A stretch of DNA of 53,082 nucleotides from Lama guanicoe (lineage: Eukaryota): the NCBI GenBank assembly GCA_013239625.1, contig MU053594.1, forward strand, positions 2,856,127-2,909,208. Direction: 5' to 3'. The notes under the pieces are model-generated. The model had not been told where the DNA came from. It did no database searches and saw only the letters and a program-made list of their open reading frames with translations. Shown piece by piece: positions 2,423 through 44,902 of this stretch (its first letter is position 1; each line of letters begins with the position of its first letter). The translations under genes and the position numbers were made by a program.

Positions 2423-3241
2423 TGATTTATAAAGCCTGTGTAAGCCTACTTTAAACCATATGATATGGACAAGGCTTAAAACGGGCTGGAACATTTTCCC
2501 CCCATTACTTCCACAATAAACAATTCCAGGGTTTGGTGTGGTGGGTGGGTGTGTGTACGTGTGGGTGTGTTTTGGACAGCAACTCCTGTCTGGAACAGGG
2601 CTGGCCAGAACCCTGTTCTTCCAAAACCTGTCCCGGTAACAGTCCAACCCGGCAGGAACCTCGATCTGTTTTTTCTTATCACAAAAACAAACAAACCCCT
2701 TCAACAAGCCAGTATCATAGAGTGGCGTCCTTCATCACTAAACCGCCCTTTCTGTAGTCTTGACTCCAAGGGAAGAATGCCACCTACCGAACCAACCACA
2801 CTAGTCAGCCAGTCCTGCAAAGTGCAGCAACGCTCAACTCAGCCCGGGTCCGCTCCAAATCCCCTCCCTCTGATTATTCTTTGGCCTTTAAAAAATTTGC
2901 CACTATTTGGGCTGACAGGAAGTTATGCTCTCAGTGCACATATCTGATAAACACTTCCACATATTGTAGCCTTCTCAACAGCGAAGCCAAATTTCAGAGT
3001 CCTCTCTCTGCCTGCGTTTTCCTTAATCGCCCTTGCACGTTTGGAGTGCCCAGGTCTCTGCAGCCCGCAGACAGCGGAAACCGCCCGTGCAAACTGCGCG
3101 GGGGCTGCTGCCCGGCCCTGCGGCTGCAGAAGCGGCGCGGGTCCCCCAGGGAGGCTAACGTGCGGGACTGCACAGGAGGTCAGTCGGGGCTTCCAAACCC
3201 CTCCGCGACGCGCAACTCCGTCCCCGGGCCATGCCGATCCC

Positions 3242-3261
3242 GGGCGGGGCGGGGGGCGGGG
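3242..3261 (+). promoter_or_regulatory. Tandem GC boxes / G-quadruplex motif
   Basis: gggcggggcggggggcgggg: four G-tracts with 1-nt loops, overlapping Sp1-type sites. Confidence 0.55.
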
Positions 3262-3862
3262 GACCCCTCTGCGGCACGGAGAAAGCCGGACAGGCATCAC
3301 CGGCACTTCTCTGTTCAGGCTGAAGTCGTCACGGCCGCGCCGATGCACGGGCTGCCGCGGCGCCTTTCCCGCGGGCGCAGCACGGGAAGGGATGGAGTCG
3401 GGGGCGAGTGGGCGGGGCGGCAGGAGAGGCGCGCACCCGCGCGCTAAAGGCCCGGTTAGTGACACCGGCCGGTGAGCCCCTTCGGACTGGACCCACTCGG
3501 CATCGCGGACTGAGAAGATCAGTCGGTGGCCGGTGTCCTAATTTATATCTGGAAAGGCGCGCGGCAGACCGGGCCGCCGCGGGGAGGGCCGCCGCCGGAG
3601 GAGGGCGGCCAGGGGCGGGCCCGACGCGGGGCGCCCGGCGCGGAGGGGCGGACCCGAGGCGGGGCGGCCGCCGCCGCAATCGCCTGCAGCCGCCTGCAGC
3701 CGCGCTCCGGAAGGCGGGCGGCGGTGCATGGCCCCGACGGGAGGTGCGCGGCCCGCACCCGGAGCCCCGCGCGCCGCCTGAGCGCTGCGGCCGCCTGGGC
3801 GCTGCGAGTCCTCGGCAGTCCGGCCGCCGCCCCGCGGACAGGACCGCGTAGCCCCCCTCTTG

Positions 3863-4061
3863 GGCTGGAACTTGCTGAAAGTCTTCCCCCTGGAAGCGAT
3901 GTCCCCCCAACAGGAGACGCTAGGGGGGCAGCCGGGGCGCTCCTCTTCCCTGACAGGACCCGCCCGGCTGGAACTTGCTGAAAGTCTTCTTCATGGAAGC
4001 GATGTCCCCCCAACAGGAGACGCTAGGGGGGCAGCCGGGGCGCTCCTCTTCCCTGACAGGA
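3863..4061 (+). repeat. Tandem duplication of ARHGAP20 start region (two 96-bp copies, period 103 bp)
   Basis: 3863-3958 and 3966-4061 are identical except ttccccctgg vs ttcttcatgg around the start codon. Confidence 0.95.
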
Positions 4062-4094
4062 GTGTGTCTGATCGCGGGAGGCTCCAGCACCAAG
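3993..4094 (+). CDS. ARHGAP20: ARHGAP20 coding exon 1 (MEAMSPQQETLGGQPGRSSSLTGVCLIAGGSSTK)
   Basis: ttcATGg at 3993; donor AAG|gtaagg at 4095; 102 nt, ends phase 0. Confidence 0.92.
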
Positions 4095-4121
4095 GTAAGG
4101 ACCCCGAGCAGAACCCCGTGC

Positions 4122-4145
4122 CCGCCGCCGCCGCCGCCGCCGCCG
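4122..4145 (+). repeat. (CCG)8 trinucleotide repeat at the start of intron 1
   Basis: ccgccgccgccgccgccgccgccg read directly. Confidence 0.9.
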
Positions 4146-6739
4146 CGGCGGCCCCATTCCCGGCGCGAGCCCTCTGCGCCCCCGCCTCCGCGGGGCTCAA
4201 CGTTCGAAGCTCGCGTTCGGAGCCGTTTGTTCCAGGCCATTCCCGCCTTACCCGCCCTCACGCCCGGCAGCGCCCCCAGCACCTCCCGGCCTTTTCTCAT
4301 CTAGCCTTACTCGCTCCACACAGGACCCCGCGGCAGCCCATCCACCGCGACCCCGGCGGCCCCGCTCCCGCCCCCGGCGGGGGCGAGGGCCGGGAGCCGG
4401 GCCATGCCTTTCCCCTTCCCCTCCTGGCGCCGGCTCTCGGCGCGCCGCCCCTCGGCGCGCCGCCCGAAGTCCCCCGGGCACTCACCGCTTCTTGACCGGG
4501 TCAGCCCCGATGTCGTTGAGGCCGGCGGCGTCTGTCCGGGCGCGGCTACCGCGCCGAGTAAGGTAGGCGGCCGCGCTGCGGCGCCCGCGGCCGCTTCGAG
4601 CGGTTTGCGAGGGTCGGGGCGGGGGGCGCGCCCCGCACTGCGCTCCTGGAAGGACTCCGGGTCTTCGAGGCGGTGGGCAGCCTCCTAGGTGTGCTGGGGA
4701 AGCTAACGGTCAGCGCCACGGAGGAGCCTGGGACCGTGCTGGGTGGGGCCGGTGGGCTGCAGCGGGGGGTCGTGAGGGCTGCGGTGAAGGGCCTTGGCCC
4801 TGCGCTCGGTCCCGGCTCCGGGGCTCGGCGGGGCTGGGGGGGACCGGGTGTCAGTGTGGGCGTGCGGACGGCGCGCTTGGTCCCTGTGAAAGCTGGGAGG
4901 AGGGATGCGGGCCACAACTTGCAGCGTACCATGCCGATCAACACAGCCGCCGTGCGGCGTGCCCATTCCGATCGGGTCAGGTTTCCTTGGAACCGTTCCC
5001 TCCGCAAGTGCACGTGGCCGCGAGCCGCCGGCCTCTGCGGCTTGGCTCTCTCTCCCAGTGATTGATTTGGGTGTTTCTAGCCTTGCTTGCTCTCGCTCCT
5101 CCCCTCCCCCAAGACCTTCTGCTATTTGGCCATTTTTACTGAGGGATAACCTAACTCTTCCTTGAGAAATGTCTTGAGGCATTGTATTTATATCTTTGGA
5201 GCCCTAAGGGACCGCGGAGGCTCCCTGATGTCAGAATCTTAGAGCCTTTCATGACTCCTCCGACCAGGATCCGGGTGGGCTCCAGGTCAATGGCAGAGCG
5301 GCGAGATCCGTGCGTCCGTGCGCCGAGTTGAGAAGTGTGTGTGAGCTCCCAAGGACCATGACCATGTCAGCAAGTCATCTAGGTGTTGGTGAACTCGGTA
5401 TCGCTGTAGTGCAGGCTCAGCTTTTGATGTATTGAGGCTGAGGTTTGTCCTTGTTGCTTGTCCCCTTCAGAGATGCACGGATTGGGGGGGGGGACTTAAA
5501 AGGTTAGAGCTTTATTTGGGAAGGTACTTGAATGTTCAGTAATTAGCATTTTAAAGCATTTTTATTCTTGTAAACTTAAGGAATTGGGAAAAATCAAATA
5601 TTTCTATTCGTGAACAGATCTCTTCCTTTTTTTACTAACGGTAATTAGGCATACTGGTGAGGGGAGAACACATTAGAGGAGCTTGCTCATGTATCAGTAG
5701 TATTGTCCAATAAATGATAGGTTGCTTTGCATCTTAAGCCATTGTCCTAAAATGCTGTCCTTCATTATAAAACATAGTGGGTTGTCTTGTTACCAATCCA
5801 GTCTTTTCCTTTTCCTTTTTAAAAAAAGTAAATGGATGTTGCCAGTCTGGTCTTTTGACAGCATTTTACTGCCTATAGAGCAGGAGTAAGGTTAAAGAAC
5901 TGTTTCATTTTGCTTTTAACATTTTTTTCCAGAAAAGTGCGTCTCCGCTTGTTCAAATATTAGTAGGCATGTCTATTTGATTTCAGACCCCCAGAGCAAT
6001 AGGAAGTAATACTAATAAAAGATTATTTACAAAAGCATAGCTCAGAGAACACTGCCATTTACACTCATGGACCACAATCTTCATGTATCCCAAATACTAA
6101 ACAGACTGATCTTTTTTAGATTTCACCCTACCATTCTAGTGCTTGGTCGTCCAGCTAAGTCATGGGATTTATTTCTAAAAAGTCTACTATGTGGTTGTAA
6201 TGTTAATTACTAGGACTTGGATCAATGTCGTTTAAATCACCAGTTATAATCAACATTTAAAAATGAAATAGAAAAGAAAATATTAGCAGGGTAGTAAGGG
6301 TAAAGACTGTTTTGTGTAACTTCTTTTTCTCTGTGTCACATATGTATATGTATTTTGGGTAGGGATGTAAAATATATTTCTTACTGAATGGTCAGAATTT
6401 TTAAAGATAGGTTTATTGGCCAGACCACTGCATGGGATGAGTTCACTTGGCTTTTAGTTCTAGCTGTATTACTGTCTCAGTAATCTTGAGAAAAATCACT
6501 TAACATGTTTCTGTTTCCTCATCTGTAAAATGGGAATCAAAGAGATAATGCTGGAGCAAGTGCTTTGAAAAGTATACACAGTGGACAAATACATCTTTTA
6601 CTCTATGAAAATAAGATGCTCTTAAATAATAGGCCTTAAAGGAACACGCTAAGCAGTAAAGCAGTAGGGTCTTTCAAGCTAGTCATCCTGAGAGTCTGAA
6701 TTCAGTGGTGTTACCAGTGCCTTGAATGTGGTTGCCAAG

Positions 6740-6965: not shown

Positions 6966-7009
6966 TTGTACTTAACGTGCATGTCTGCTGTAATTCATAG
7001 TACTATGCC

Positions 7010-13700: not shown

Positions 13701-13759
13701 ATCCCTGAGCGGTACATTCCCTAGAGATGTGACTCATGGAAGCAGTGCAGTGGGGCTTA

Positions 13760-14312: not shown

Positions 14313-14313
<1 letters not shown>

Positions 14314-14361: not shown

Positions 14362-14364
<3 letters not shown>

Positions 14365-15245: not shown

Positions 15246-15328
15246 AAAATGAAAACACTAGCAGAAAGGAGAAGGAGTGCCCCATCTCTCATCCTGGATA
15301 AAACCCTGCAGAAACGGCCGAGTACCAA
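15246..15328 (+). CDS. ARHGAP20: ARHGAP20 coding exon 2 (KMKTLAERRRSAPSLILDKTLQKRPST)
   Basis: Acceptor ttttcccccctcaacag, donor AA|gtaagt; 83 nt, phase 0 to 2. Confidence 0.95.
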
Positions 15329-26498: not shown

Positions 26499-26660
26499 GG
26501 AAAGCCGGTCTGCTATCATAGACACATGTGCATTTCTGTCATCCATGTGCACCAGTAGGACCCTGCTAATTGACGAACAGGTAGAACTCAGAAGAGGCCT
26601 GCAGAGGCAGGAGCGGCATCTTTTTCTATTCAATGACCTGTTTGTTGTGGCCAAAGTCAA
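26499..26660 (+). CDS. ARHGAP20: ARHGAP20 coding exon 3 (start of PH domain; ESRSAIIDTCAFLSSMCTSRTLLIDEQVELRRGLQRQERHLFLFNDLFVVAKV)
   Basis: Acceptor ctgcag, donor AA|gtgagt; 162 nt; PH-domain motif ERHLFLFNDLFVVAK. Confidence 0.93.
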
Positions 26661-27859
26661 GTGAGTATACTCTATACACTCTCTCCTGGTTATCGTTATA
26701 AAATTGCATTTCCACTGACAAAGGCAACCTTTCTGTTCTTTGCTTACTATGAGACTGTCTGGACTCTGTTACCATAACTAATATCTGAAGTGAGTTTTAC
26801 ATTTGGTTTGGTTTGGTTTTGAACAGAGTGTTTCAATTATTTATTCATTCATCAGGTGTTCATTTAGACCCCAGTCTGTGTCATGTTCTCTATAAATATG
26901 GGATGCAAAGAAGACTGCGATGGACATGATCCTTGCTTTTGTATTTTTATGTGTAGACATTGTCTTCATTGTTATTTTTAGCAGCTTATTCTTTTAAACA
27001 CTTTTTAGAATCCTAAGCATTACAGTTTGGACTCCAGACATTTTCTCCTAAGACACTGAGGTAAGCCTCGATTGCCCGAATGTCCCTTCCCTTTCCTTCT
27101 ATACACTGTGGGCCTCTGAATTCTTACACATAAACAAGGACTCCTTTCTCTGAGTCGTTGTGCAGAGGTGGAAATGAATACTGTGCTTCGAACACGTGAT
27201 GTTGTAGAACTCAGCCTGATTGGCCAACCATTTTACATTACACCTGTCATTGTTACTCCATAATCAAGATGCTGTCCAACTGGCTTGTAAAACATTCACT
27301 CTGCCTACTTCCAGTCGCCCAGCACTCTAGACTGAGTGTGTAGTGTCAGCATGGTAGCCTGGGTTCAGATCCAGCACATTTTGCTGTGATAACACAGAGC
27401 AGTGAGAGCCGACTGGCCAGTATCCCATTTACTGGAGGCCTAGTCCACAGCTCTGCAGGTCTGCATGGCAGGAGGAATCAGCTGCCCAGTATCCGAAGTG
27501 ATTTCTTGGGATCAGTAGAGTCTCTCTCAGTCTCTGCTCCCTTGATGCTTTCATTCTAATGTGTGGGGGCAGACATTACAAATTGTACTTAGTGTTGAGA
27601 AGAAAATAGGGTGCTGGTTGAAGTGAAATCTGGGATATATGTTAGGTAGGTTTAGTCAAGGGGAAAAAAAATCGATGAAGGATAAAAACAACCAGCCATT
27701 CAGATATTAGGAAGATGGGCAGAGGAGACAGCAGGTACAAAGGTGGTGGGGAAAGCTTTGCCCTTTGGAAGAGTTAAAAGGAAGCCTGTCACTGGAGCAT
27801 GATAAGCAGGGGAAATAGGCAAGGATCAGCTTATCAGGACCTTCGGGGGCTGCTTTAAT

Positions 27860-28372
27860 TGCCTATTATCATATAACAAATTATCCCAAAACACAACAGC
27901 TAATGAGTATGAATGTCTTTGGACATTTTCTCTGAGTCAAGAATCTGAGAGTGGCTTAGCTGGTGGTTCTGGCTCAAAGGCTCTCATGAGGTTGCAGTCA
28001 AACTGTTGACTGTGGTTACAGTCAGGTCAGAGCTTAAATGGAGCTAGAGAATCCCCTTCCCATCTCACTCGTGGGGGCTGGCAGGCCTCAGGTCCTCAGC
28101 GGCTGTTGGTCCAGGGCTGTAGGTCTTGTCCAGGTCAGTCTCCTCAAAGTGAAAGATCCAAGAAGGTGAGGAAGAGAGTACATAAGGGAAAGAACACCCA
28201 AAACAGAAGCTGCAGTCTTATAACCTGTTTTGGCAGTTGCATACCATCATTTCCAGTGTCTGCTGTTGGCCATAGAAACCACCTTGGTGCAGTTGGGAGG
28301 GAACTACACAAGGGTATGAATATCAGGAAACAGGTGTCATTGGGGACCATCTTGGGGCCCAGGTACCACAAA
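27860..28372 (-). mobile_element. MLT1-type (ERVL-MaLR) solo LTR remnant
   Basis: taacaaattatcccaaaac..tggcttagctggtggttctggctc..tctcatgaggttgcagtcaa..cattggggaccatcttgg..taccaca. Confidence 0.7.
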
Positions 28373-28844
28373 GGCTATGATGGGAGTTTGGATTTTATTC
28401 CAAAGGGTTTTAATTAGTTCATAGTTTTAAAATATTGTTCTGGCTATGACAGATAATGGATCAGAGGGTTGGCAAGAGTAGAAGCAGGGAGACTCGACAG
28501 GAGGTTATTGGCCTAGACCTGATAAGAGATAGTGAGGGCCTTAACTGGGGAAATGGCAGTTACATGAAGGATACCGACATATTTGGAATATACTGTAGAG
28601 GTAACCAAAAGAATTCACTTTTCACACAACACTAAATGCCAATGCAGTTAACATCCAGCCTAGAAAACAGTGGTTGCAACTTGCTCCATCCCCCATTCTT
28701 ATTGTTTATGAAACATCCTAAAAGGTAAGAGTCGTTTAACAAATCCAGTCTCATCAAAGAGATTGTTAGTCACTAGAGAATAGTAAACACTCTTTTCTAC
28801 TATTCACATCCTCTCACCTAATTTACGCAGTGTCATAGATAAGA

Positions 28845-29220
28845 CATGGGTGGGGAGGAGATCCAGACAGTGGAGTAGGAGGACGGTGAGCTCATCTACC
28901 CCCGGGAACATGTCAAAAGTACAGCTACATGTGGAGCAATTCTCACTAAAAAGCTGGAGACTGGCAGAAAGACTTTTTTCTACAATCAAGGCTGCGAAGA
29001 AAGATCTGCAAGGAGTCAGGTAGAAAGGGAGGAGAAGCAATCAGGTTGGGGCCTCCACCCCTTGGAGGGGACACAGAAGAAGAAGGGGATCTCATGGGCT
29101 TGCAGATCTTACCTGGGGAGTGAGCAGTTTGAACCATATATTGGGCACCCTAGCCAATACCAACAAGACAGGTCCCTTTGAAAACCAGTAGGAGGGCTGT
29201 AAGAAACTGAGAGTCCACTC
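28845..29220 (+). mobile_element. L1 5' UTR fragment
   Basis: gagtaggaggacggtgagctcatctacc..acagctacatgtggagcaattctcactaaaa..ctggagactggcagaaagac. Confidence 0.55.
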
Positions 29221-30363
29221 ATGTAGAATGAAGCCATTGTGCCACAAAGCACTTTACTGTTACACTTAAGTGGTGTGCCCTACAGGAAGCATAGATGAGG
29301 CTTTGAATCTAGACTGTCCTTCTTGTATATAGTTCCTGCAAATCCCCTTTCAGTTTATAAATCCTGCTGAAGAATTTTAGCTTTTAAATATTCCATGAGG
29401 AGTTTTAGAGTTACTTTCCTGTGAAGTATCTGGGATTTCGCTTTAGCTTCTGGTGTTTCCACAAATGGCTCTGAATGATAGGAAATACCCAGGTTTCCAG
29501 AATGTTCTTTTTATCCTTCCCAGTGCCTTCCATTTAAGTCTCGGGTTCATTACGAGCATTAAATCTGTGAACTATGCCAAGAGATAGAATGGTTTCAATA
29601 CCAAGGTTCTAAGGAGGATTAGGTAGAAATTGTCCGAAAGCAATTTCATTGCCATCTTAAAGAAGATCAACTTCTGGGTCTCCAGGGATAAATATTAATT
29701 GTATCAACAACTTCTTGGTATTTTTTTTTAGTTTAATTTAGAGTCTATTTTTAGGCTACAATTTTTCAATTTTAGTAAAAATACATGGGGAAATGGTATG
29801 GACAAAATCTTAAGAAAGGAAATTTAAAATAATCTTTGCTTCTAAAGACTAGAAAATCTTATAGCTGCCCAGTTGGAAATGCATTATAAATTTCTGTAAT
29901 TAATTCCAGGTTATATTTTTTAGTGTATCTATTGCTCTTAAGGGTGAAAATTTTATAAATATTTTTTGAATAATGTTTTTTTAACTCTTTTGTTCAACCA
30001 CTAAAATATTTTTGGAAGTAAGCAAGTTGTAAATAGTAAATGAATTAATTTTTTTGTAACAGCAGTAAGTTTAAAATTAGGGGGTTTGATCCAAATGCAA
30101 TGCTCAATATAGAAGAATAAAGTCACAGGTGTATGACTATTTGCTGTCATAATACACCAAACGTCTCAAAGGCCTTTTTGGGCCAAGGTAGCCAACCATG
30201 TTACCATTTACCGTGGTAGGCACCGAAGATAAAAACAGTAGTGAATAAGACATTCTTTGCCCGTGATTAGTGAGAACTGTCCTCCTATCACAAGTGCTGA
30301 AGTTGTCATAAAATTTAACAAGCCGAATTACAAGAAGTCCCTGTCTGGTTTTTATCTTTCTAG

Positions 30364-30507
30364 ATACAACAACAATCTTAAGATAAAAAAACAAATAAGA
30401 TTAAGTGATATGTGGGTAGCAAGCTACATGGATGAAGTGGAAGAAGACAGCGCCATGGAATCCTTTATCCTGGGCTGGCCCACCATCAACTTTGCGGTCA
30501 CTTTCAG
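30364..30507 (+). CDS. ARHGAP20: ARHGAP20 coding exon 4 (PH domain; YNNNLKIKKQIRLSDMWVASYMDEVEEDSAMESFILGWPTINFAVTF)
   Basis: Acceptor tttttatctttctag, donor AG|gtgaga; 144 nt; lies within ORF 30257..30511. Confidence 0.94.
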
Positions 30508-31794
30508 GTGAGAGCCGCAGCCGGTCCGTGGGTTGGCTGCTGCGAAATACCGTCAGCTATGGAATGTCCAGGGTGGAGGAAAAAAATTAATCAGATTTTG
30601 TTCCAGTTTTGTTCTTCTGAGTTTTTATTTAAAGGAAATATTTTCTTCTGATTGATCTGTTCTGAAGCCAGTGACTCATCTTTTGATACACCCCACTGAA
30701 GGCTCCCGTATGCCTTATATTTTTTCCCAAAGAGCTTTTTATTAAAATATGTGAAATATATTGGTAAATACTGAGAACTCTTGGAATCATTATCTTGGTT
30801 TGAGCGGTGATTTCTAAAGGGGCTACCGAAACATCTCAAGCACTGTGAAAGAGGAAGGGGGTGGTCAGAGCTCTAGGACCCCATCTCCAACATCCCTTCC
30901 CTCGTGGTCAGGTATTGCTTTATATATTGAGCTTTCAACTTGGCTTTTCAAACCACTGAAGCAGACCTTTACTGAAAAAAATTTTATAAAATACTCCAAT
31001 TAAGTTTGAATAACTGGTTTATACTCCCAAATTTTCTAAAAAAATTAATTATAGAAATGAATGTCATGAAATAATGTGGTTCCTGAATTGTATATCATGT
31101 TCTGATTTAGTGTCTATAGAGATGTGACAATCAAAAGCAAATACATGATACAAGGAGTGAAAGTCAGTTTCCTAAGACTCACTCCTTGGTGGGGATGGAG
31201 TCGGAGAATGTATGAACAGACAATCTTTGTGCTGTCATCCTGAACATGCTAAGTTGGCACTTTTCACATCAAGGTGAGCCAACCAGAACTCTAACTTGTG
31301 ATTTTGAACAACTGCATCCTCAAGTGCAGTGTAATGTTGAAAAAGCTTGAAAGAGCTGGTTTTCATCACATGCACACAATGTTTTTCTTTCTGCTTCTTC
31401 TCTCCTCACTACCATCAAACTCCTCAGGCATCATCTTAAAGCTAGAGAACTAAAAATTTTTAAGCTATTAATTGTTTGATAAAGGAAGAGCATGCCATTA
31501 AGTTCTGTTATGCACAACTGGCCCACCAAAAGATTTTAAGAACTCATTTGGAAGAAAGCATGTGTTTGTATCATTCTCAGCATATCTTCTTTTCCATGAC
31601 AGATTTCTCTAGATATTATCATTTCCTATTGTTTAATCTTCTTGGAGTTTACAGCTGAAAGGAAGTGATTTCAAGTGAGGGCTGGGACTACATGGCATCT
31701 TTAATCAAGGAGTTTTTTCATGAAACTTTTCTTAAGAAGAATGGAAAATGTAGAAGCAAGTTATACAATACATTATAATTCCTGGAAAAGTACA

Positions 31795-33260
31795 GCAGTT
31801 TAACCAAATGTTTAAGTTAACATTACTAGTGATGTTGTGTGAATATCTGCCCCTTGAAGAGCAATTCACTCCTGTAGCATCTCTCCCCAAAACCTCAGTC
31901 TCATCATGAGAACTGAATCAGAGAAGCTTAAATTGAGGGATGTTCTGTAGGGTTACCTAACCAGTAAGCCTCAAAACTGTCAAGGTCAACAACAACAAAA
32001 ACAGGAAAAGACATAGAAACAGTCACTAAGGAGACATGGTAACTGAATGCAATGTGGTATCCTTTGGATGGATCCTAGGACAGAAAAAGGACATTAATGG
32101 GAAAACTGGTGAAATCTGAACAGTCAGGATTCCTGTAGAGGAAACGAAAGCTAGGCGTGAGATATACAGAGACTTTCTGTACTATGTTTGCATTGTTTCT
32201 GAAATTTTTAAATTATTTCCAAATTAAAAGATTACTTTTGTTTAAAAAAAAAAGTAGTGTTGAAGAGTTCAGACTCTGGTTTGGCAGAGTGAGGTCTCAA
32301 CAGGCTGACCACTCTACAGATAACAATTGTAAACTCTAAGCAAAATACAAACAACAACAAACCACCTGAGGGTCCTGAAAAGTGAGCAAAAATTGGCATA
32401 TTTTGGAGAAGAAATGAACCTTGGAATGAGGTAGCAACTCTGGGTGAGTTTCCTGTTTTTAAGGCATTAGCCTGAGGGCAGGCTGCAGGCATACGGTGGT
32501 GCAGGAAAACCAAACTGACAAAAAGCCACAGTCTTTCTGGGCTCCAGAACCGAAGTACAGAGTCTGGGTCAGCCACTACCATAGGAACATGAGGGAGGAA
32601 ATCTCAGAAAGGAGAGTATCAGAGACGAGAAGCTCCAGAATTTTTGTTTAGACTGTGCCCCAGCCTCTGGCTGAAGGCTGAACCGCACATGCATGGCACA
32701 GACTTAAAGCAGTCTGGAGCTAAGGCTAAAAAAATCGAACCGAGGTGCTGCTCAACACAGGTGAGATAAAGTTTTCAGCTTGAGTCTAATAAAGTTAGTT
32801 GTCTGTTAAAACAAAAGCATCAACAGTATTTAGCAAATATAACATAGCTCAGAGTCTCCAAAACAAAGCATTCCTAATGTCCAGAATGCAATCTAAAATT
32901 TCTTAACATAGGAAAAACCTAGAAAGGAAAAGATAATAAATAAAAGCCAGTCCTCAGATAACTCATATGTTGGAATTACCATAAAAGAACTTTCAAGCAG
33001 CTCTTATGACTATGCTCAGTGGGTAAAGGGAGAAGCCAATTAAAATGAATGAAAAGATGGGAAATCAAAGCAGAGAAATAGGAAATATTTGTAAAATCCA
33101 AATGAATAATCTAGATCTAAAGCTGTAATATCTTAAATTTTTTAAAAAAAATCCCCCCTGTGGCCTTAGTTGCAAAATGGAAATGAAAGAGAAATGAGTC
33201 AGTGAATTTGAAGGTACATTGATAGAAATTGTCCAATCTGAGGAATAGAGAAAACAAAGA
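31795..33260 (+). mobile_element. Old L1 fragments (L1MC-like 3' end, then a 5'/ORF1 remnant)
   Basis: aactgaatgcaatgtggtatcc..ggatggatcctaggacagaaaaaggacattaatgggaaaactggtgaaatctgaa; later gagtcagtgaatttgaaggtacattgatagaaattgtccaatctga. Confidence 0.65.
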
Positions 33261-33689
33261 TTTTTTTTAATGCCTTGGTGCTTAGGAAGAAGCCTCTGCA
33301 CCTGCTCCTTATAACCATTTCCTCCAGGGTCTTCTGTTTCCTTAGGTACCTCAACTGAATGACATGTGGTTTCCAGCTAACTCTTAATCACCTCCCAAAT
33401 TTGAGGGGATCTTCCCAAACTGTCTTCCCCTTTTTCTTTCTCTAAGGTACACTGCTTGCTTCTCTCCTGGCTCTTATCTTAGGTGTTTATGAAACACTGA
33501 AATAACCTTGATTTGGGAGTACTTCTGTTTTTAGTTCTACAAAAATGCCTGAGATTAGGAATTACTAGGGAAGGAAAACCCTGAATTCTTGCTTAGAGCA
33601 AGAGCTAGGGGAAAATGCAAGAAGATTACCAAAGTAATCTCAGTGAATTAATTTGTTTGTTCATAATTTGCTTATTTTAAAGTAAAGTA

Positions 33690-34050
33690 TGCTATATATT
33701 CAAACAGTGGGACACGAAGCAGCACTGAGGATGGATGAGCTAAAACCACGTGCAATAAAATGGATAAGTCTCACAAACACAATGTTAAATAAAAGAATAA
33801 AATATTGCATGCTATATGGTTATATGTATATAAAGTGCCCAAATAAACAAAACTATTGTGTTTTATTAGAAGTCAGGATAGTAGCAACTAGTGCCTGAAA
33901 AGGAACACAAGGAAATCTTCCAAGGTGGTTTTTTGTTTCTTAATCTGGGAGCCTGTCAAACGGGGTGTGTTCAATTTGTGAAAATTCTTCAAGCTGTACA
34001 ATTAAGCATTGTACAAGTTCTCTCTGTGTATCTTATATATCAATAACAAG
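33690..34050 (+). mobile_element. Old L1 3' UTR remnant (L1MC/ME-like)
   Basis: tggataagtctcacaaacacaatgttaaataaaagaa..agaagtcaggatagtag..caatttgtgaaaattcttcaagctgtaca. Confidence 0.6.
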
Positions 34051-34789
34051 TTAAAAGTTTATAATACTGATTGTTTAAAGGGACAGTTTTATTTAATTGC
34101 TTTGAAAAAGGTACAAGTCTAAAGAAAAACTTACCTAATTTTTTCAACATAGATTTTTTTGCCAAATAAATGCAGTATTTGACATAAATGAACCTAGAAA
34201 ATCTTCTGTTCAGGGAAGGAGAAGGCATCAAAGATTGTAAGGGACTATGAAAGATGAAAATTGGTCAGTGGCAACGAGATGTAATGAACTTTCTGATGAC
34301 CAATCCTGGGAGATTGCTCATGGAGAAAATTGTTAAACAACAGAGTTAGAAACCAGTTACAAATATCTGTTAAGTGTATTTTTCTGGAGCAAGAAAGTAA
34401 CTGAGGTTTCCAACTTCTTGAAGATTAGAAATATGATTTTAAAAGCTACTGAGTAACAAGACTATGTAGAAATAAACTTTAAATTATTTTTAACTTTAAG
34501 AATTAAATACAGCAGTGACTTCAGAAAAATTATTAATCAATAGTAATTTAGTTGTAAATAAGTTGATCTTAATCAGAGGATTACAGTAATTAAGAATAAA
34601 TTTTCTATGAACTAAATAACTGAATTATAGTTCTGCCATATGTATAGAGAAATAAATGTTTCCTTTCCTGACAACAAACTGGTTTCTGAGCCAAAATATC
34701 GCTATCAGTATGCCAAATTTCTCCTTAATCTCTTTAATCTCAAATTAAGCATATTTTCTGTTTGCATGACACTTAAAGCTACAAAAACA

Positions 34790-34930
34790 CTCTTGAGATA
34801 ATTAGCCCAGTTTTACAGATGTGGAAACCAAAGCTTAGAGATATTAAGTGATTCGCCCATGATAATATGTCTTGCATGTATTTTTGAAGCCAGGTGTTGG
34901 AATTCCAAATCAAGTACTTTCTCCACTATA
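34790..34930 (-). mobile_element. MIR remnant
   Basis: cccagttttacagatgtggaaaccaaagcttagagatattaagtgattcgccca. Confidence 0.6.
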
Positions 34931-35202
34931 AGGATATTACTTGTAAGAGAGCCATAAAGTAAGAAAGTGGATCTTTCTTGGCTCCTTCCAAGAAACTAAA
35001 ACCTGACTGTGTAGTTTTTCCTAACAGGGATTTTCATTTCTGGGTTCTCCAGAGCACAGGTTTGCCCAGGGTTGCAGCACTACCGTGCACCCCTGTCAGC
35101 AACAATGGGCTGTTGATATTTTGTCTGGATTGATGCTCTTAATTTGTTAGGATAAGTATTCTACGCGGTTTAATTGTCCTCTCCCATTTTCTTTCATTGC
35201 AG

Positions 35203-35244
35203 TTCTCCAGAACAAACGGGCAGATGGTTCTATCTCTTTCAGAG
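35203..35244 (+). CDS. ARHGAP20: ARHGAP20 coding exon 5 (PH C-terminal helix; SPEQTGRWFYLFQ)
   Basis: Acceptor ttttctttcattgcag, donor AG|gtattt; 42 nt; conserved PH tryptophan present. Confidence 0.88.
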
Positions 35245-36158
35245 GTATTTTTTCAGTATACATATTTTTAATCTTTCAGGTGTAGTTAAACGATTAAATT
35301 CTTCTCTGCAGGAATGTGCCCCAAACTATTCCCCTTCCTCTTAGTGGAAATTGTTCATTTGTCCTCAGAATAATCTGAGGTTTAGACTGTATGCCAAGCT
35401 ATGTGCTGCAATTAATGTTCTCTCATTACATGTATTTCTTACTTTCTAGGAAGGAGAACATTGAGGTCTGGATCATATTAGACAGAATTTAGTTAATAAT
35501 CTCTCCCATCTCTTTCTTTGTCTCCAACCTGTCACTTGCAGCTAAAAGTTTCCTCAACGCATGTATTAAGTTTCCACACATGGAGGGTTTTCTGCTGAGC
35601 ACCTCAGAATTCAATTATTACCCCTACCTCTGAGCATACAGACTGAAATGGTCAATTTAGATCCATCTCTGATTCCCGTGGACCTTCCCCCTTCCTCCCT
35701 GCTCCCCCTTTCCAAACACTGGGGATAACCAAGATGCACACTCCCTTGGAGAGCTCAGTGAGAAGGGAAAGGCCACTGCTTTGGTTTGGTCTAATAAAGT
35801 GTTATAAATGCTCCTGTGCCAATGAGCCAGGTTCTGGGCCTGTCCAGGGAAGGCAGGGAAGCTTTGATGATAAAACATCACCCAGAGCTGCCTTAACCTG
35901 ACTCTGCTTCTCAAGCCTTGCTTGGAATGGATCTTCTCTGTTCTTTTTTGTGCCCATGCCTAATGTCCCGAGAATTTTTAAAGTGGTCTTCCAACCCATA
36001 ATGTAATCTGACTTTGCTGAGTCTTTCCACCTGTCTTTTAAAAAATAGCATATAAGTATATTGAAAAATATTAGCAAAAATAGATTGATTTAAAAATAAG
36101 CTGTTAGCAAAATCCATCTGACTCAGTCTTGTTTTGGGTTGTTGTTGCATTTGATTAG

Positions 36159-36243
36159 ATACATCGATCTAGAGAAAGAAAAGGACTACCCGAAGAGCAT
36201 TCCGCTCAAAATCATCACCAAGGACATTGGGAATTGTGCCTAT
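36159..36243 (+). CDS. ARHGAP20: ARHGAP20 coding exon 6 (YIDLEKEKDYPKSIPLKIITKDIGNCAY)
   Basis: Acceptor tttgattag, donor TAT|gtaagt; 85 nt, phase 2 to 0. Confidence 0.94.
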
Positions 36244-39124
36244 GTAAGTGTTTCTAAGCCAGAAAAAATTAAGTTCCAGGTCCCTACATAAGGCAGAATA
36301 CCATGGATGAAAAGAGAGACAGGCAGGTAGACAGAAAGACAGACAGACTGTGTACATTCTACAGAAGGTAGGCGTTTAGAAATATAATGTGGGGAAGTGC
36401 ATTTTCCTGGGTGTATGTATATCTTTGTATAAGTGAAAAGCAACCCTAGAGAAAATGAAACAAGAGAAATCCTTGTTAACTACAGTGTTGAACATTGACA
36501 CTGGGAAAGGATATTGCCTGTCAGGTGTCTCTTGCCTTCCTCTGGCATCCGTGCTTCTCTGGGTCCTTCCAAAAGCCGCTGCAGAGGCTTGTAGTAAAGC
36601 CATTTCCATAAGGAGATATTTCCTATTAGTATTAAGCAACTTTTTTCCAACTTGTCAGAGATAAGGAGAGAGTGGTTTTGGAAAGTTCTCCATTCTTTGA
36701 GTTTTTAGGGATTGAATCCCTCAGGTTATTAATAAATGGATGAGCTTGGAGAGATGGTATTTTTATGGATCAGCATGTTTCTTCCTCACAGTTATTATCA
36801 TATCGGTTAAGAAAAAAGTCTATTTAGCCCTAGTCATTATGTGGAATGTGATGACTGAAATACAGCAAAGTGCCATGATGTTATATCAACGTGCCATGAT
36901 GTGAGCAAAATGGAAACATGAATATTTCTGTAATACTGTGGATTGTCACACGTCCCAGGAGCTCCAGATCACACAGGGTAGTTTTGTGTGTGGACAAATA
37001 TGTAGTACAAAACAGATATATTTTGGGCAAAAGTTATGCAAAGGTCTGATACGAGTGCCAGATGTCACTGCTTGAGGGAAATACTCAAATTTTTCTCTTC
37101 TTTCATCTTCTCTTCTAAAACCAGTTATTTCTCAAGGACACACTTTCCATACACTGCAAGTGTTTAAAAATTTTTTTCAAGGTATTTTTCCATGAAAATC
37201 CTGAATGTAACCAGCTGCCATAACCACTGAACGAAGGCCAGCAGGAAAACAGTGGTGTTTTTTCTCCCCCTTACTTTGCTACAGAAGGTCTCTGCAGCCT
37301 CACACCATAAAAACTTGAGTGGTTGAGTTACCAGTGGACTTCACTTAGCTTTATTTTTATATCATATTGTTTGTGGTCGGGTTGGGTGCTCTGTTCTATC
37401 ACTAGACCCTGGTGAAGTCCACAATGATGCGACACACTGTCCTTTGCTCTCTGAAGTTGTTTCATGGCAATAGTCTCCTTTCGGGGAGCCCTGCTGCCAG
37501 AAAGAGTGATTCCCCCAAACAGGAGTACATGTACGAGAGTGTTCTTTATCCTTGGCCTTCAGTTATGTGCCACCTGCTAGTGACCTCTGCTAATATGGGA
37601 AAAACAGCCACTTTTTCAGTTTTGTCTCTTTATTTTGTGTACTAGCCAAAGAAAACTTGTCTGCTAAAATTCATTTGTTTTGTCTACCAGAGAGGCATGC
37701 AGGGAAAAATACACATCCTATAATTACTGTTTTGAGCAGATGTCTCTAATATTAAGAAAAATCATCGTCTTAGAAACCAGATAGATTGCGGGTGATTATT
37801 AGTATTACGGGATAGATACTTCACTTTACAAAAGATTTGATATTGAATGTTTCTTTATATGAAATGGAGAGGTTGTTCAGACTTTAAAGTAAAAAAGCAG
37901 AAGCCTTTCATGAGAGTCTAGCTCAAGTTTGCAAAAACATCTCTGACATTCTGGTACAAGATGAACACTGAGCCCTCCCTGCTGGGTTCTGAGACACTTC
38001 TGCATCAACCATGGAGCTGCAAGGAACACAATTTGTAATCAGTTAACAAATTCAAGCAATTTGTCATGTCAAGTAATTGGCTCATAGAGAAGAAATGCTC
38101 TATAACAGACGGATGAGTGATGAGTTATCAGTGGCTTTCACTTAGCTTCATATTTATACATCATTTTGTTTCCATTTATGCTGCCTTATCTGTGCCATTT
38201 AAGCCCTGTCGGGGACACAGCCCTAATTACTGATTTATCTGATCATTGTAACATGTAGAACCTACCTATAGTAAATACTTACTTTTTATAGCATAGCATT
38301 GTCTTCTATTTAAATAATGCCTTGGAATTCAGTGAACTCTATAGATATTTCAGAATCTTATTCTCTTTGTTGTGAACTGGATTTTTAAATAGTCATTTCT
38401 CACTGTGGTTTAGCACAGAGTTGTTACAGATACCCTGTTCAGTGGCAAAGCTGGTAACAGGACTGAGCTTTCTGAAATGTTCAGTCTCTTCGCTAGACTC
38501 ATTGGCTTTAAGGCCGCTCCAGATTTCAGAAATGAAGATCCTGGTAGCCGCAGTGCCTGACATAGAGAAAGTGCTCAATAAACAGTGGGGCTTTTTAAGT
38601 CTAAATGTGAAATGTCTTTTGTAACCAGTTCTAATTCTGATTTTACGTAAACTGACTTTTTACCATGCAAAGAAATAAAAACCCACACTGAAAACAGTAC
38701 ACAGAAAGAAATAGGAATTAATCCAGCTCAGTCCCCGCTTTACTAACATGCTGCATTATGGAAATACTCATGGGCTGGATGATCAGCCTCACTGATTTTT
38801 TTTCTTTTGGTTGGGAGGGTGATTCATGTAATCTCTCTGAAATATTTTATTCCTTTTCTGTCTGGCTTAAGGTCTTATATTCTTTGAGCCACATATTCTT
38901 TATTTTAAGAGAAAGAGATGCTGTATTAAAAGGCATCATATATAATAGAATGAAAATAAATTATAATCAAGGGTTCGTGTTCTACTTAGGCCATGTTCTT
39001 TACTCTTTAAACACTTTAAATTAAGATTTGCCTGTAGATAACCATTTGACGATAATTATTTTTTCACCTGTTTTAAAATTCTCTGTTTATAGCTGTGTTC
39101 TTTTATTTCTTTTTTTTTCTACAG

Positions 39125-39202
39125 TCTAAAACTATAACAGTAACAAATACAGATACTACAAATGACGTTATCAACGCGACCCTACCAATGCTGGGGATAA
39201 CT
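39125..39202 (+). CDS. ARHGAP20: ARHGAP20 coding exon 7 (RA region; SKTITVTNTDTTNDVINATLPMLGIT)
   Basis: Acceptor ttttttttctacag, donor ACT|gtaagt; 78 nt. Confidence 0.93.
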
Positions 39203-39374
39203 GTAAGTTACTCTCCTAGACATTCTTAATTAAAAACAAACTTTGATACTTTAGATTCATGTAAATATTATCTCTTCCATCATAAGACAGCTGATTACTA
39301 GAGATACTAAAGTCCTGTTTTGTCCCCAAAAATGTAGAAAATAGGGACAGTAGATTTTTTTACTCTTTTTGAGG

Positions 39375-40690
39375 GTTTTGTTTGTTGTAAATTGAGCTAT
39401 AGTTGACTTACAACATTATATTAGTTTCAGGTATAAAACATAATGATTTGATGTTTTTGCAGATTATATCCCATTTGCGTTACTATGAAATACTGGCCGT
39501 ACCCCCTGTGCTGTACGCTGCACCCATGTGTCTTACTAATTTTATGCCCGGTATTTGTACCTCTTGATCGCCTTCACCTGTCTTGCCCTTCTCCCTGCCC
39601 ATCTCCTCATTAGCAACATTAGTTTGTCTCTGTATCTGTGTTTCTATTTTGTTAGACCCATATGTTTGTTTTATTTTCTAAATTTCCACATATAAGTGAT
39701 ACACAGTTTTGTCTTTCTCTCTCTAACTTATTTCATAGGCATAATATCCCCCAGGTCTATCCATGTTGTCACAAATAGCAAAATTTTCATTCTTATTTTA
39801 TGGCTGAGTAATATCTCATTATACACACACACACACACACACACACACCCCACATACTCTATTCATTTTATCTGTTGATAGACACTTCGATTGCTTTAAT
39901 ACCTTTCTACCATAAGTAATGCTGCTATGAACATTGGGGTGCATGTATCTTTTAAAATTAGTGTTTTTGTTTTCTTTGGATATCTGCTGGATCATATTAG
40001 TTTTTTGAGGAACCGCTAAACTGTTTTCCACAGTGGCTGCACTAATTTACATTCCACCCAGCAGTGTGCAAGGATTCCCTTTCCTCCACACCTCAAGAAC
40101 ATTTGTTATTCATAGACTTTTTTAAAAATATTTTTTATTGAGTTATAGTCATTTCACAATGTTGACTTTTTGATCATAGCCATTCTGACAACTATTAGGT
40201 AATTTCTCATTATTGTTTTCATTTGCATTTCTCTAATAATTAGTAACGCTGAACATCTTTACATCTACCTATTAGTTAGCCATCTGTATGTCTTCTTTGG
40301 AAATATGTCTGTTCAGGTCTTCTGCCCATTTTTGGATTGGACTGTTTGGTTTTGTTTTTGTTTATTGATACTGTGTTGTATGAGCTGTTTACATATTTTG
40401 GATATTAACCCCTTGTCAGTCATATCATTTGCAGATAACTTCTCCCATTCTGTAGGTTGATTTTTTGTTTTCTCAATGTTTTCCTTTACTGCACAAAAGC
40501 TTTTAAATTTAATTGGTCCCATTTGTTCATTTTTGCTTTTATTTCCTTCATGTTAGGAGATGGATCAAAAAAATCTTGCTGTGATTTATGTCAGAGAGTG
40601 TTCTGCCTATGTTCTCTTATAGGAGTTTATGGTATCTGGTCTCACATTTAGGTCTTAATCCATTTTGAGTTTATTTTTATATGGTGTTTT
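39375..40690 (-). mobile_element. L1 3' region, antisense, containing an (AC)n tract at ~39823-39847
   Basis: attgagctatagttgacttacaacattatattagtttcagg..gtaatgctgctatgaacattggggtgcatgtatc; minus-strand ORF2 peptide IKFKSFC..KE.I..TK.QPTEWEK..AN...DKGLISKI. Confidence 0.88.
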
Positions 40691-40929
40691 ATATGCGCTA
40701 TTCTTGTAGTTAGGGGATTTTTTTTGTATAAGATTCTTAATAAGAAAATTTCAACCTCCTTCCCCATTCCCCACTTGTCATTGTATGACTATTCTTTCCC
40801 TGTTTCCTCTCTTAGTTCTTCTTTGTTATCTATTATTCTCTTTATTATCCCAAAATTCAATTCAGTCTTAGGATGCTGAATTCTGAAGGATTTACTCTAT
40901 AGGATTTTTACATAAAGAATATATAGCTA

Positions 40930-43175
40930 CTCGCGATGCTCAGAGAAGCGCGCCGGGAGCCGCGAGCAGGGCGGGCAGACAGGTGAGCCCGGGCGGGAGG
41001 GGACACGATGGCAGCGCAGGCGCTGGCGCTGCTGAGGGAGGTCTCGCGGCTGGAAGCGCCGCTGGAGGAGCTCCGCGCTCTGCAGCCAGTGCTGCAGTCG
41101 GTGCCGCTCGGAGAGCAAGCGGCGGGGCTGCGCCTCGGCCCGCTTTTCTCCGCCCTCTGCAGCCAGTGCTGCAGTCGGTGCCGCTCAGCGATCTCCGTGA
41201 GCAAGCGGCGGAGCTGCGCCTCGGCCCGCTTTTCTCCGCCCTCTGCAGCCAGTGCTGCAGTCGGTGCCGCTCAGCGATCTCGGCGAGCAAGCGGCGGAGC
41301 TGCGCCTCGGCCCGCTTTTCTCCCTGCTCAACGAGAACCCCTGGTAACAGACTACTTTGTGCGTATCCATCCTGGAGAGGTTGCTCCAAGCTTTGGACCC
41401 AGTTCACGTGGCCCGGAACTTCAGGAGTGACCTGCAGAGGGGACTGACTCATCCCAATGATTCTGTGAAACTCCTTACTCTGTCCCAGGTTGGAAGAATT
41501 GTTGAAAATTCTGATGCTGTTACTGACATTGTAAATAATGCTGAATTGCTAAAACAAATCGTTTGTTGTATTGGTGGCAAGAATCTATCTGTAGCTAAAG
41601 CAGCCATTAAATCCCTGTCAAGAATGTCACTGACCCAAGCTGGCCTGGAGGCTTGCTTTGAAAGTAATCTGCTGGATGATTTGAAAAGTGTAATGAAAAC
41701 AAATGACATTGTTCGATACAGGGTGTATGAGCTAATTGTGGAGATTTCTTTTGTGTCCCCAGAATCTTTAAAACTACTGTACCACCAGTGGATTGGTAAC
41801 CCAGCTCCTTAAGGAACTGACTGATGAGGATGTGCTGGTCAGAGCCACCTGTATAGAGATGGTGACATCACTGGCATGTACTCATTATGGACGACAGTAC
41901 CTTGCTCGGGAAGGAGTAATTGATCAGATTTCTAACATAATTGTGGGGGCCGATTCAGACCCTTTCGCTAGCTTCTATTTGCCAGGATTTGTGAAGTTTT
42001 TTGGAAACCTAGCTATCATGGATAGCCCTCAACAGGTCTGTGAGCGTTATCCTTTTTTGTGGAAAAAGTCTTTGAAATAAAGTCAGGACCCCACCATGAG
42101 TGGTGTAGCAGTGGACATGATTGGAATTCTGGGATCCAATGTTGAAGGAAAACAGGTTTTACAGAAAACAGGAACTCGCTTTGAACGCTTGCTCATGAGA
42201 ATGGGATATCAAGCAAAGAAGCCTCAGTAGAGCTCAAAATTAGGTGTTTGGATGCAGTTTCATCTCTTTTTTATTTACCGCCTGAGCAGCAGACTGATGA
42301 CCTTAGGATGGCAGAATCCTGGTTTTCTTCTTTATCTCGGGACCCACTGGAGCTCTTCCGTGGCATCAGCAATCAACCCTTCCCTGAACTACGCTGTGCT
42401 GCCCTGAAAGTGTTCACGGCCATTGCAAACCAACCCTGGGCTCAGAAACTTATGCTTAACAGCCCAGGTTTCATAGAATATGTGATGGACAGGTCCGTAG
42501 AGCATGACAAAGCTTCAAAGGATGCCAGATATGAACTGGTGAAAGCACTTGCCAATTCTAAGACAACTGCAGAAATCTTTGGGAACCCAAATTGTTTGAG
42601 GCTCAGAACTTAACCTGAGTGAAGGTCCATACTACGTGAAACCTATTTCCACTACAGCAGTGGAAGGGGCTGAATGATTTTTTCTAGAGTCTTCACCACT
42701 TATTGACCAAAATTTTTCCTGAGTCTTCTGACTCCATTTGTATTTTACAAAACAGAGACTTTCCTCCCACCAGAGTTATCATGGAGTATCTAATGTGACT
42801 TTATCGCCAACACTGGTTGTGTTTCTACACTGAAATACAATGTAAATCCAGGAAAGCAGGCACACTTGATTATTGATCCAGATGTTCTTCAGACTCCTTT
42901 GAGCATCTTAATCTTCACAAGAATATGGAAGTTTTGTTCTCCTCCCAGAAAGTTTTTGTGGACTTCTCACTGTCTTATTTTAAAACCCACAGCAACTTAA
43001 ATGGAACTAAATTGTTTCTGAATTCTCTTTATCGCCTTTTTTTTTTCTTTTGATCCTTTCCCCACTTCTGATTCCACTTTCGCAGTCTTGGATATAAATA
43101 TTCTTTGTAAAACAAATATATGCAATCTTAAAATTATGATCCCTATGCTAAGAATAAATACTTTTAATTTAAAAA
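40930..43175 (+). pseudogene. PSMD5: PSMD5 (26S proteasome non-ATPase regulatory subunit 5) processed pseudogene, full length, in ARHGAP20 intron 7
   Basis: Intronless, from [22 protein letters not shown] (ATG 41008) to ..YYVKPISTTAVEGAE* (TGA 42675-42677). In-frame TAA at 41345 and several frameshifts (~41770, ~42055-42080, ~42220, ~42611). AATAAA at 43153, short A tail, 16-bp TSD AAAGAATATATAGCTA at 40914-40929 and 43176-43191. Confidence 0.96.
41071..41323 (+). repeat. Three-copy tandem repeat (77+86+86 bp) inside the PSMD5 retrocopy 5' CDS
   Basis: Units start with CTCCGC at 41071, 41148 and 41234 and each contains tgcagccagtgctgcagtcggtgccgctc..gctgcgcctcggcccgctttt. Confidence 0.95.
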
Positions 43176-44835
43176 AAAGAATATATAGCTAGAAACCACA
43201 TTCACAAACTACAGGTTCAGAGGATGAGAAGGATGGTACCTCTGATGAACAGGTAAATTAAAAAAATAAGCTTTGAATTAGATCATGGATTTGAAGATCT
43301 TTAGTATGCACACCACACTTTCCTTGTTTAGCTTTTAGCTTCCACTTATTGCTTTTCATGTTCAATGGTGAGTTTTTAAAAATTTTATTAGCGGAGAAGA
43401 ATGGAATGTTTGTGGATGAGGTAGGGAAAGAGCATTGGAGAGTCCCATCTCCTCCTTACCGGTGTATCAACACCACACAGTGGGTCCTCATATTAAAGGG
43501 AATGCCTTTCAAAAGGATGGATGCTAAAGGAAACACTTGAACAATACCATTTCTTGCATGAGAGTCTCTATAAATATGAAGACATGGTGTTACTATGATG
43601 TGACATGACATGTATTTAAGATATGTCATAGTCTTAAGTATTTTGATTTGCTTGTACACATTGCTATCGTTAAGCCCTTAAGAAAGAACCAAAATTTAGC
43701 ATAAGATGTCTGATTTATTTTAATTCAATTTAGTAATATATTTAAGATACAATTAAGTATATATGCGCTGAGTAAAGCAGGCCCCTCTGCATAGATTTCT
43801 AAGCCTGTAGAATTATGCATTGGAAGAGAGTGAGTAGCTTGAGGGGAAGGAAGGGAAGTTAATTAATGACATGACTCATTTTCTTATTTATGCTTTTCTT
43901 TTGGATAAGTGATCAGTCTCATCACCCCAAAAGTATTTCTATTCAGTGTGTAATTAGGAATTGAGTCTCTCTGGTTATACTGCTCTAAGGAATTATTAAT
44001 GTGTACACTATACTACATGAAAAGAAAGGATTTTTACTAGATTGCTCTTCCTGTTTGCAATAAAAATTTTTGACTAGAGGATAGGAAAGGAAGTGACAAA
44101 GTAGGGGAGGGGACTTGGCAGGATGATCTCCTAGCCAATTCCCTTCATTATAAGGTCAGGGTCATGATTTTTAATCAGAAGATAAAGGCAAGAATATTAA
44201 ATATTGCCATTCTGTTGTGACTTCATTTTAAACATTTTTGCTTTATCCTCTTCTAGACGATACAGCAAAGTCTGTATAATTTGGTATTATTTCTTTGAAA
44301 TAGAATTTTTAGTATTACTGGGTTGTAATTCTGCTAGTGAACGGTTTCATTGTTTCCCATAACTGGGCCTATTCTCTAGACAGTATTCTTGTCCTTTCTG
44401 TCCCCAGGACTGGACTTGCCCAAAATAAAGCCAGTGTACACTGTGCCAACTACCTGTCTCCTCAAAGCCCCTTGGTCAGTCTTTATTGGTTTTGTTTGTT
44501 TGTTTGTTTGTTTACTTTACACAAGGGCATGTATGTGATCTCACATTCTGTGGGCTACCCTATTTATAATACTGAGAGCCTGATTCCACTGAAGTTCATG
44601 GATCCCTCGTCATCACTAGGGGAAAAGGGCAAGATTTCTGAATCCTCTGTTAGGGGTTAGAGGAGAGATGGGTTGTAGGAATCAGCATTGCCACCTTCAA
44701 AGACCGTATCACCCCCATGAACCATGAAAGCATTTATATTGGCCCTATGTTTTTGCAAAACATAGAAATGCCAAAATATGTCTTTGTTCAGTTACCAAAT
44801 GTGAGAGACTGATTGTTAATTCTTTTATCTCCAAG

Positions 44836-44902
44836 GACTCTGAAAGTGAATACAAGTTGTGGGTGTATTCGGGCAGAGAGGAGGCACCATACCGACTTAT
44901 TG
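44836..44902 (+). CDS. ARHGAP20: ARHGAP20 coding exon 8 (RA region; DSESEYKLWVYSGREEAPYRLI)
   Basis: Acceptor ttcttttatctccaag, donor TG|gtaagt; 67 nt, phase 0 to 1. Confidence 0.92.

Follow-up and report, generated by a model that had tools for sequence, protein, structure and literature searches.

In people, upstream AUGs whose reading frames run out of frame into the coding sequence form the most deleterious class of new uAUG, and selection acts more strongly on new AUGs that create such overlapping ORFs than on ones that create separate uORFs, its strength rising when the context is moderate or strong and the AUG lies close to the CDS (PMC7253449, in the portion available to us). The leader of ATF4, as the available text of PMC11058473 describes it, combines a uORF1 of 4 codons, an overlapping uORF2 of 60 codons and near-tandem AUGs. 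ARHGAP20 (RA-RhoGAP), the gene considered here, is a RhoA GAP downstream of Rap1 and a Rap1 effector (PMC13419509, as excerpted).

We analyzed a 53,082-nt stretch of the Lama guanicoe genome (hereafter the window) in which the start region of ARHGAP20 stands twice in tandem. Like the overlapping ORFs created by 5' UTR variants of NF1, NF2 and IRF6, the upstream copy presents a new AUG, out of frame and moderate in its Kozak context, that lies less than 100 nt from the main start, meets no stop ahead of the CDS and is predicted to cost protein; unlike those variants, which are point changes or 1-nt indels on patient alleles, it stems from a duplication of the gene's own start region, the first 23 codons of its ORF copy the real N-terminus, and the sequence is of reference type (PMC7253449, same portion). 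The camelid ATG lies 94 nt from the CDS, whereas the disease variants reported in that portion of PMC7253449 cluster inside 50 nt. By its sequence features, the predicted mode of action thus falls in a known class, the out-of-frame overlapping uORF. The layout also resembles the ATF4 leader in having a short uORF, a longer out-of-frame overlapping ORF and two close in-frame AUGs of medium context, but its uORF1 has 17 rather than 4 codons, its overlapping ORF has 83 rather than 60 codons and crosses an intron, and it is not conserved across mammals (compared with the available text of PMC11058473). If real, the duplication would offer a clean natural case in which a single step made an overlapping uORF out of a gene's own start region, and other mammals show the ancestral state.

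Gene identity and exon structure

With the exon at 47437-47619 as query, a protein search yielded 118 proteins from 123 candidates. Joined together, exons 1-9 encode 316 stop-free codons, and all 316 residues agree with XP_072809846.1 (alpaca ARHGAP20 isoform X2). Domains were tested on XP_072809846.1 itself, the RhoGAP exons falling outside the window; PF22286 (RHG20_PH), PF00788 (RA) and PF00620 (RhoGAP) follow one another there in order and above cut-off. Thus, the window carries the alpaca-type ARHGAP20, an intact named gene, and the identity proposed in the first-pass annotation is confirmed. A pseudogene paralog, which the first exon match had suggested, is ruled out by the same full-length identity. 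Exons 3-9 (26499..47621) keep an open frame with the PH and RA domains; the acceptor of exon 8, as placed, ends in AAG rather than YAG, and the frame still fits the alpaca protein.

Coordinates of the features are collected in the table. Past the duplication, the gene has an annotated alternative first exon whose translation equals the first 53 residues of XP_072809845.1, and the rest matches at 282 of 282 positions. It contains an inner 15-nt tandem of 2.6 copies (4427-4465), amounting to five additional codons relative to paralog models; at 4510 it also has an ATG that is out of frame and weak in context. Among 28 alpaca records (five clusters), 14 start with this type of exon, 2 with exon 1 and 12 further in; the isoform labels X1 and X2 carry no abundance information. 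A (CCG)8 tract (4122-4146) directly follows the exon-1 donor.

Features of the ARHGAP20 start region and exons in the window (positions of the window; oORF, overlapping ORF)
Feature	Position	Strand	Basis
CpG-island promoter region of ARHGAP20	3001..5000	.	GC 0.73-0.74; CpG observed/expected 0.93
Candidate core promoter: TATA-like 7-mer at 3542; GC boxes at 3603, 3613, 3646, 3662, 3716	3542..3721	+	pattern match only
uORF1, 17 codons, T at -3, G at +4	3728..3781	+	translation
Upstream microhomology, 9-nt match to junction site 3952-3960	3837..3845	+	sequence match
Upstream copy of 96-nt unit, ancestral position	3863..3958	+	repeat search, TRF, codon spacing
Three-substitution cluster; ancestral first ATG to CTG (3890-3892)	3887..3890	+	copy comparison
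Surviving out-of-frame ATG, copy of conserved second Met; opens 83-aa ORF	3899..3901	+	translation, homologs
Acceptor-like pyrimidine tract, AG end 3956 (twin ends 4059)	3937..3956	+	sequence pattern
Junction spacer, 7 nt	3959..3965	+	copy alignment
Downstream copy, ancestral Phe-Phe-Met context kept	3966..4061	+	copy alignment, homolog comparison
Exon 1, coding part; main ATG 3993, second ATG 4002, donor after 4094	3993..4094	+	start of XP_072809846.1 (isoform X2)
Alternative first exon, coding part, downstream of duplication	4404..4562	+	first 53 aa of XP_072809845.1 (isoform X1)
Exon 2; in-frame ATG 15249; oORF stop TAA 15299-15301	15246..15328	+	exon mapping
Exon 3	26499-26660	+	exon mapping
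Exon 4	30364-30507	+	exon mapping
Exon 5	35203-35244	+	exon mapping
Exon 6	36159-36243	+	exon mapping
Exon 7	39125-39202	+	exon mapping
Exon 8	44836-44902	+	exon mapping
Exon 9	47435-47621	+	exon mapping

From the end of the short uORF1 of the leader it is 117 nt to ATG 3899 and 211 nt to ATG 3993. The corresponding block in the read-through ORFs of five other mammals has the same length, with protein letters compatible with, though short of proving, the same start and stop; this uORF may be an old regulatory element of ARHGAP20 in its own right.

Anatomy, junction and ancestral state of the tandem

The two copies of the 96-nt unit are 97% identical and start 103 nt apart in the assembled window, where TRF reports a tandem of period 103 with 1.9 copies and a score of 377. 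They differ at three positions (3887/3990, 3888/3991 and 3890/3993), all of them substitutions without indels. Both the duplicated start region with this period and the confinement of its mismatches to the neighborhood of the upstream first ATG, as the first-pass annotation had them, are therefore borne out in the assembly. The window contains no N. Given the structured junction, differences that are substitutions only, the error-free coding frame and the older alpaca model described below, all of them indirect support, we consider it likely that the duplication exists in the real genome, beyond the assembly. At the remaining 93 sites the copies show no difference, which, under substitution rates taken from general background, bounds the age of the duplication at 7-16 million years, a limit too loose to place the tandem against the camel-alpaca split.

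The 7-nt motif GACAGGA occurs at 3837, 3952 and 4055. All three had been read as junction marks, and the positions are correct; however, 3952 and 4055 are one site in two copies, so that the independent occurrences number two, not three. The site at 3837 matches that at 3952 over 9 nt and that at 4055 over 7 nt, and a chance match within 40 nt of island-like sequence has a probability of 0.0012 for a 7-mer and 0.00015 for a 9-mer (200,000 Markov draws). Both breakpoints thus share a short homology of 7-9 nt beyond chance, as is characteristic of microhomology-mediated duplication, and the proposed microhomology at the junction holds. A pure single slip, in which the period equals the homology spacing, does not fit; since the motif spacing is 115 and the period 103, a microhomology duplication also requires a net loss of 12 nt at the junction. 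The spacer between the copies measures 7 nt, against an ancestral spacer of 19 nt. Microhomology-guided template switching, with a 115-nt step and the 12-nt net junction loss, would produce the tandem of the exon-1 start region. A search of the island for a template of the 7-nt spacer gave a best match of 9 nt, a length reached by 27% of random island 7-mers, and the best match to a template for the substitution cluster (7 nt) was likewise at chance level. The residue encoded at the upstream motif is Gln in the window versus His or Tyr in other mammals, and, to judge from these protein letters, the upstream microhomology may itself be camelid-specific.

To establish which copy occupies the ancestral position, we compared codon spacing with that in other mammals. 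A search with the frame 3782-4093 yielded five read-through ORFs from 1431 candidates, non-camelid by sequence and all single-copy. A conserved Trp codon and the first Met are 54 codons apart in four of the five and 53 in the other; in the window, 161 nt separate the Trp codon (3729) from 3890 and 264 nt separate it from 3993. The 161-nt spacing thus identifies the upstream copy as the ancestral place, with its first ATG lost, while the downstream copy, judged by its retained Phe-Phe-Met context, is the present start. Because the upstream copy occupies the ancestral place, 3899 is expected in exon-1 mRNA unless the start site has moved or a new splice is used. The exon-1 head is present in 63 of the 118 proteins, with both Met residues kept in 63/63. 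A repeated head was looked for in 157 proteins and found in none, which, together with the single-copy state of the non-camelid ORFs, upholds the claim of a lineage-restricted duplication.

Other camelid records bear on the allele in different ways. In three Camelus orthologs the first Met is the start, which is uninformative on the duplication, since a model would begin in the downstream copy. The older alpaca model XP_031531383.1 matches at 297 of 298 residues and starts at the second Met, as expected of a CTG-headed single copy, whether a collapsed tandem or a true allele. Its accession series presumably belongs to the VicPac3.1 annotation. That assembly was built from 190X short reads and 8X long reads (PMC6598621, in the part available), a read mix that can collapse a 103-nt tandem. 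If the CTG-headed single copy is instead the true allele, the tandem may have arisen when a CTG and an ATG allele exchanged unequally, and 3899 would formerly have been a working start. The second Met is likewise the start of XP_074211031.1 (P0149), a paralog model from the Bactrian camel that belongs to the other clade; this suggests either repeated loss of the first ATG or that the gene can do without it.

Searches for a second, independent camelid sequence of the region came back empty: a 24-nt pattern taken at the head of the unit had no match in metagenome contigs, a protein search with the frame 3526-3915 found none among 1945 candidates, and a HMMER search with the frame 4067-4492 gave one weak low-complexity match (P0157, E 2.6e-4), which was dropped. 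Of 24 public runs listed, 20 share words with 3400-4300 and 5 share at least half, the best reaching 0.53 of 85 sampled words and RNA runs 0.05-0.12; such word shares give no indication whether the junction is included.

A second tandem in the window (86 nt, 2.5 copies, 97%; 41113-41323) sits in the GC-rich 5' part of a copy, broken and lacking introns, of a gene for a 26S proteasome chaperone (PF10508, E 3.5e-45; approximately 40950-43500, intron 7, + strand), which we take to be PSMD5. A LINE-1 5' UTR was rejected as the identity of this tandem. A near-identical GC-rich tandem in a broken retrocopy indicates that such duplications persist in the window without function.

The out-of-frame ATG and readings of its effect

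ATG 3899 lies in frame +2 relative to ATG 3993 and has G at -3 and T at +4, a moderate Kozak context with the same flanks as ATG 4002, while the flanks of 3993 are T at -3 and G at +4. Read through the splice 4094/15246, it opens an ORF of 83 codons that has no stop before the CDS, spans the in-frame ATGs 3993, 4002 and 15249, and ends in exon 2; checks of frame and splice agree with the first-pass annotation on the intact ATG and on the length and stop of this ORF. As 3899, 3993 and 4002 are all of moderate context, some ribosomes would start at 3899 and some would leak past. On an mRNA from the ancestral promoter, scanning ribosomes would meet 3899 before 3993. Initiation there would carry them across all three in-frame starts to the exon-2 stop, so that no ARHGAP20 would be made and the mRNA would be marked for nonsense-mediated decay (NMD), 3993 being reached only through leaky scanning. 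The duplication would in this way have shifted the working start 103 nt downstream and stranded the second ATG of the gene in another frame, at 3899; CTG 3890, in the same frame, could contribute weak initiation. The stop of the overlapping ORF lies 27 nt before the end of exon 2 and upstream of at least 6 further junctions. By the usual rule, a stop far upstream of later exon junctions leads to NMD, which would probably accompany the repression expected for the exon-1 isoform. The exon-1 isoform is probably hypomorphic through initiation at 3899. The earlier proposal that the overlapping uORF represses the main ORF is in line with the general rule for out-of-frame overlapping ORFs (PMC7253449, portion as above).

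We favor, with confidence that is about evenly balanced, a real and lineage-restricted tandem whose hypomorphic exon-1 isoform is tolerated rather than selected, since transcripts from the first exon at 4404-4562 leave the duplication out, the gene belongs to a multi-copy family and constraint on that family looks relaxed. Were the duplication neutral, it would amount to a small annotation point, with protein models that conceal it. The first-pass annotation had instead suggested selection against the competing start and a lineage-specific translational brake. Three differences within 4 of 96 nt have P = 0.002 if independent, so the substitutions look like one event; the chance that three scattered changes would touch the start codon is approximately 0.09; and because the lost start at 3890 and the surviving 3899 share a frame, the competitor was thinned at most, not removed. 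The case for selection is thus weak: the substitution pattern is compatible with tuning and provides no evidence for it. A selected brake, for example as a dosage offset after family expansion, could draw on the fact that the overlapping ORF covers all three in-frame starts, that loss of one of two competing ATGs could tune its strength, and that the family has expanded, all nine rows of one alpaca contig forming a recent clade. Set against the apparent single event, the untouched bypass exon, and searches for fixation or conservation in a second genome (metagenome contigs, 1945 protein candidates, HMMER) that came back empty, this reading is improbable, and its purposeful character is unsupported.

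An unlikely alternative, though one that deserves some weight, accepts the duplication but holds that translation is unaffected, exon-1 mRNA being scarce, starting past 3899 or being spliced from an upstream exon into the acceptor-like tract ending at 3956. Splicing into this candidate acceptor would skip 3899 and keep 3993. The tract has 13 pyrimidines in 16 positions, within the 10-15 of eight true acceptors, with 5 T versus their 6-13, and donor-like sites agreeing with the consensus at 5 of 7 positions lie after 3178, 3454 and 3471. Exon 1 is used by only 2 of the 28 alpaca records, and CpG-island promoters often scatter their transcription starts. However, a start past 3899 requires a promoter shift, given that the upstream copy is the ancestral start-codon site, and the twin acceptor-like site at 4059, inside the coding exon, is read through in 63 homologs. 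Somewhat less probable again is an assembly artefact in which two alleles or read ends were falsely joined in a GC-rich island. Such a join would be in keeping with the location of both near-perfect long tandems in GC-rich patches of the window, with XP_031531383.1, which shows no sign of a usable first ATG, and with a best public run that covers little over half of the sampled words; yet the unique 7-nt spacer and the 9-nt upstream match are unlike a simple concatenation, the copies differ by clustered substitutions and not by indels, and the N-free window has an error-free coding frame.

The least probable of these readings is an ATF4-like switch, in which ribosomes that have translated uORF1 would reinitiate at 3899 normally and at 3993 or 4002 under eIF2-alpha phosphorylation. 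The DNA holds a short uORF1 (3728-3781) and an overlapping uORF2 (3899-15301) of the ATF4 type, provided that the mRNA starts upstream of 3728, with a 117-nt gap between them, 94 nt from ATG 3899 to the main ATG, and two in-frame ATGs three codons apart. On the other hand, uORF1 has 17 codons instead of 4, the GC-rich leader is predicted to fold strongly (-147.6 kcal/mol for 3690-3992), and NMD would oppose a switch. The overlapping ORF is also absent from all five non-camelid read-through ORFs, unlike the mammalian conservation of the ATF4 type. If a switch did exist, one 103-nt duplication would have turned an ordinary leader with an old uORF into a two-uORF switch made from the gene's own N-terminus, and full-length PH-RA-GAP ARHGAP20 from exon 1 would be damped at rest and raised under stress.

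The ARHGAP20 family in camelids

ARHGAP20 is amplified in camelids, with 16 alpaca model groups on six contigs and two to three per camel species (proteins P0006-P0008, P0026, P0045 and P0124-P0156), separate loci being inferred from accessions and labels. We built a tree of 33 rows (16 alpaca, 7 Camelus and 10 outgroups), using one row per model group and leaving out isoform twins and fragments. All 23 camelid rows group together (100/100) and split into two subclades (100/98 and 95/94), and since each subclade holds camel and alpaca rows, the first duplication is older than the camel-alpaca split, gene conversion aside; the recent clade from one alpaca contig comprises 9/9 of its rows.

Camelid copies have diverged further from lynx than other mammals have: identity over the PH and RA domains is 75.8-82.6% (4 of 5 copies tried were measurable) versus 90.6-95.5% in nine other mammals, and over the GAP region 80.0-87.8% (5/5) versus 88.6-95.5%. 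The catalytic-arginine motif is kept in 33/33 tree rows; the family is thus not simply decaying. These sequences make constraint on the family look relaxed, although the fast camelid change could instead come from positive selection. In camelids, ARHGAP20 stands out as a Rap1-RhoA regulator that has been amplified and is changing fast, and a new first exon may be taking over from its canonical start.

Alpaca-specific copy blocks are known, for instance 19 NEK10-related sequences on chromosome 17, and like these, ARHGAP20 has many '-like' copies in alpaca and few in Camelus; in contrast to the blocks described in the available part of PMC13751797, its first duplication is older than the split between camel and alpaca, and long open frames and the catalytic motif are preserved in its models. 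The main text of PMC13751797 does not mention ARHGAP20, ARHGAP does not occur in the main text of a camelid CNV preprint (10.1101/2025.08.28.672513), and ARHGAP20 is absent from one supplement of PMC13663546. Within open-licence PMC and bioRxiv texts, we found no paper on a camelid ARHGAP20 duplication or amplification and no relevant one on an ARHGAP20 uORF, exon-1 variants or an alternative promoter.

Compared with mammalian ARHGAP20 as excerpted in PMC13419509, the camelid gene has the same PH, RA and RhoGAP domains and the same exon-1 head; it differs in its duplicated start region, its MPFP-type first exon, its faster sequence change and its many paralogs, of which P0008, the sole model scanned, lacks PH and RA. 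In several alpaca models, that one included, the MPFP first exon is joined straight to the end of the RA region.
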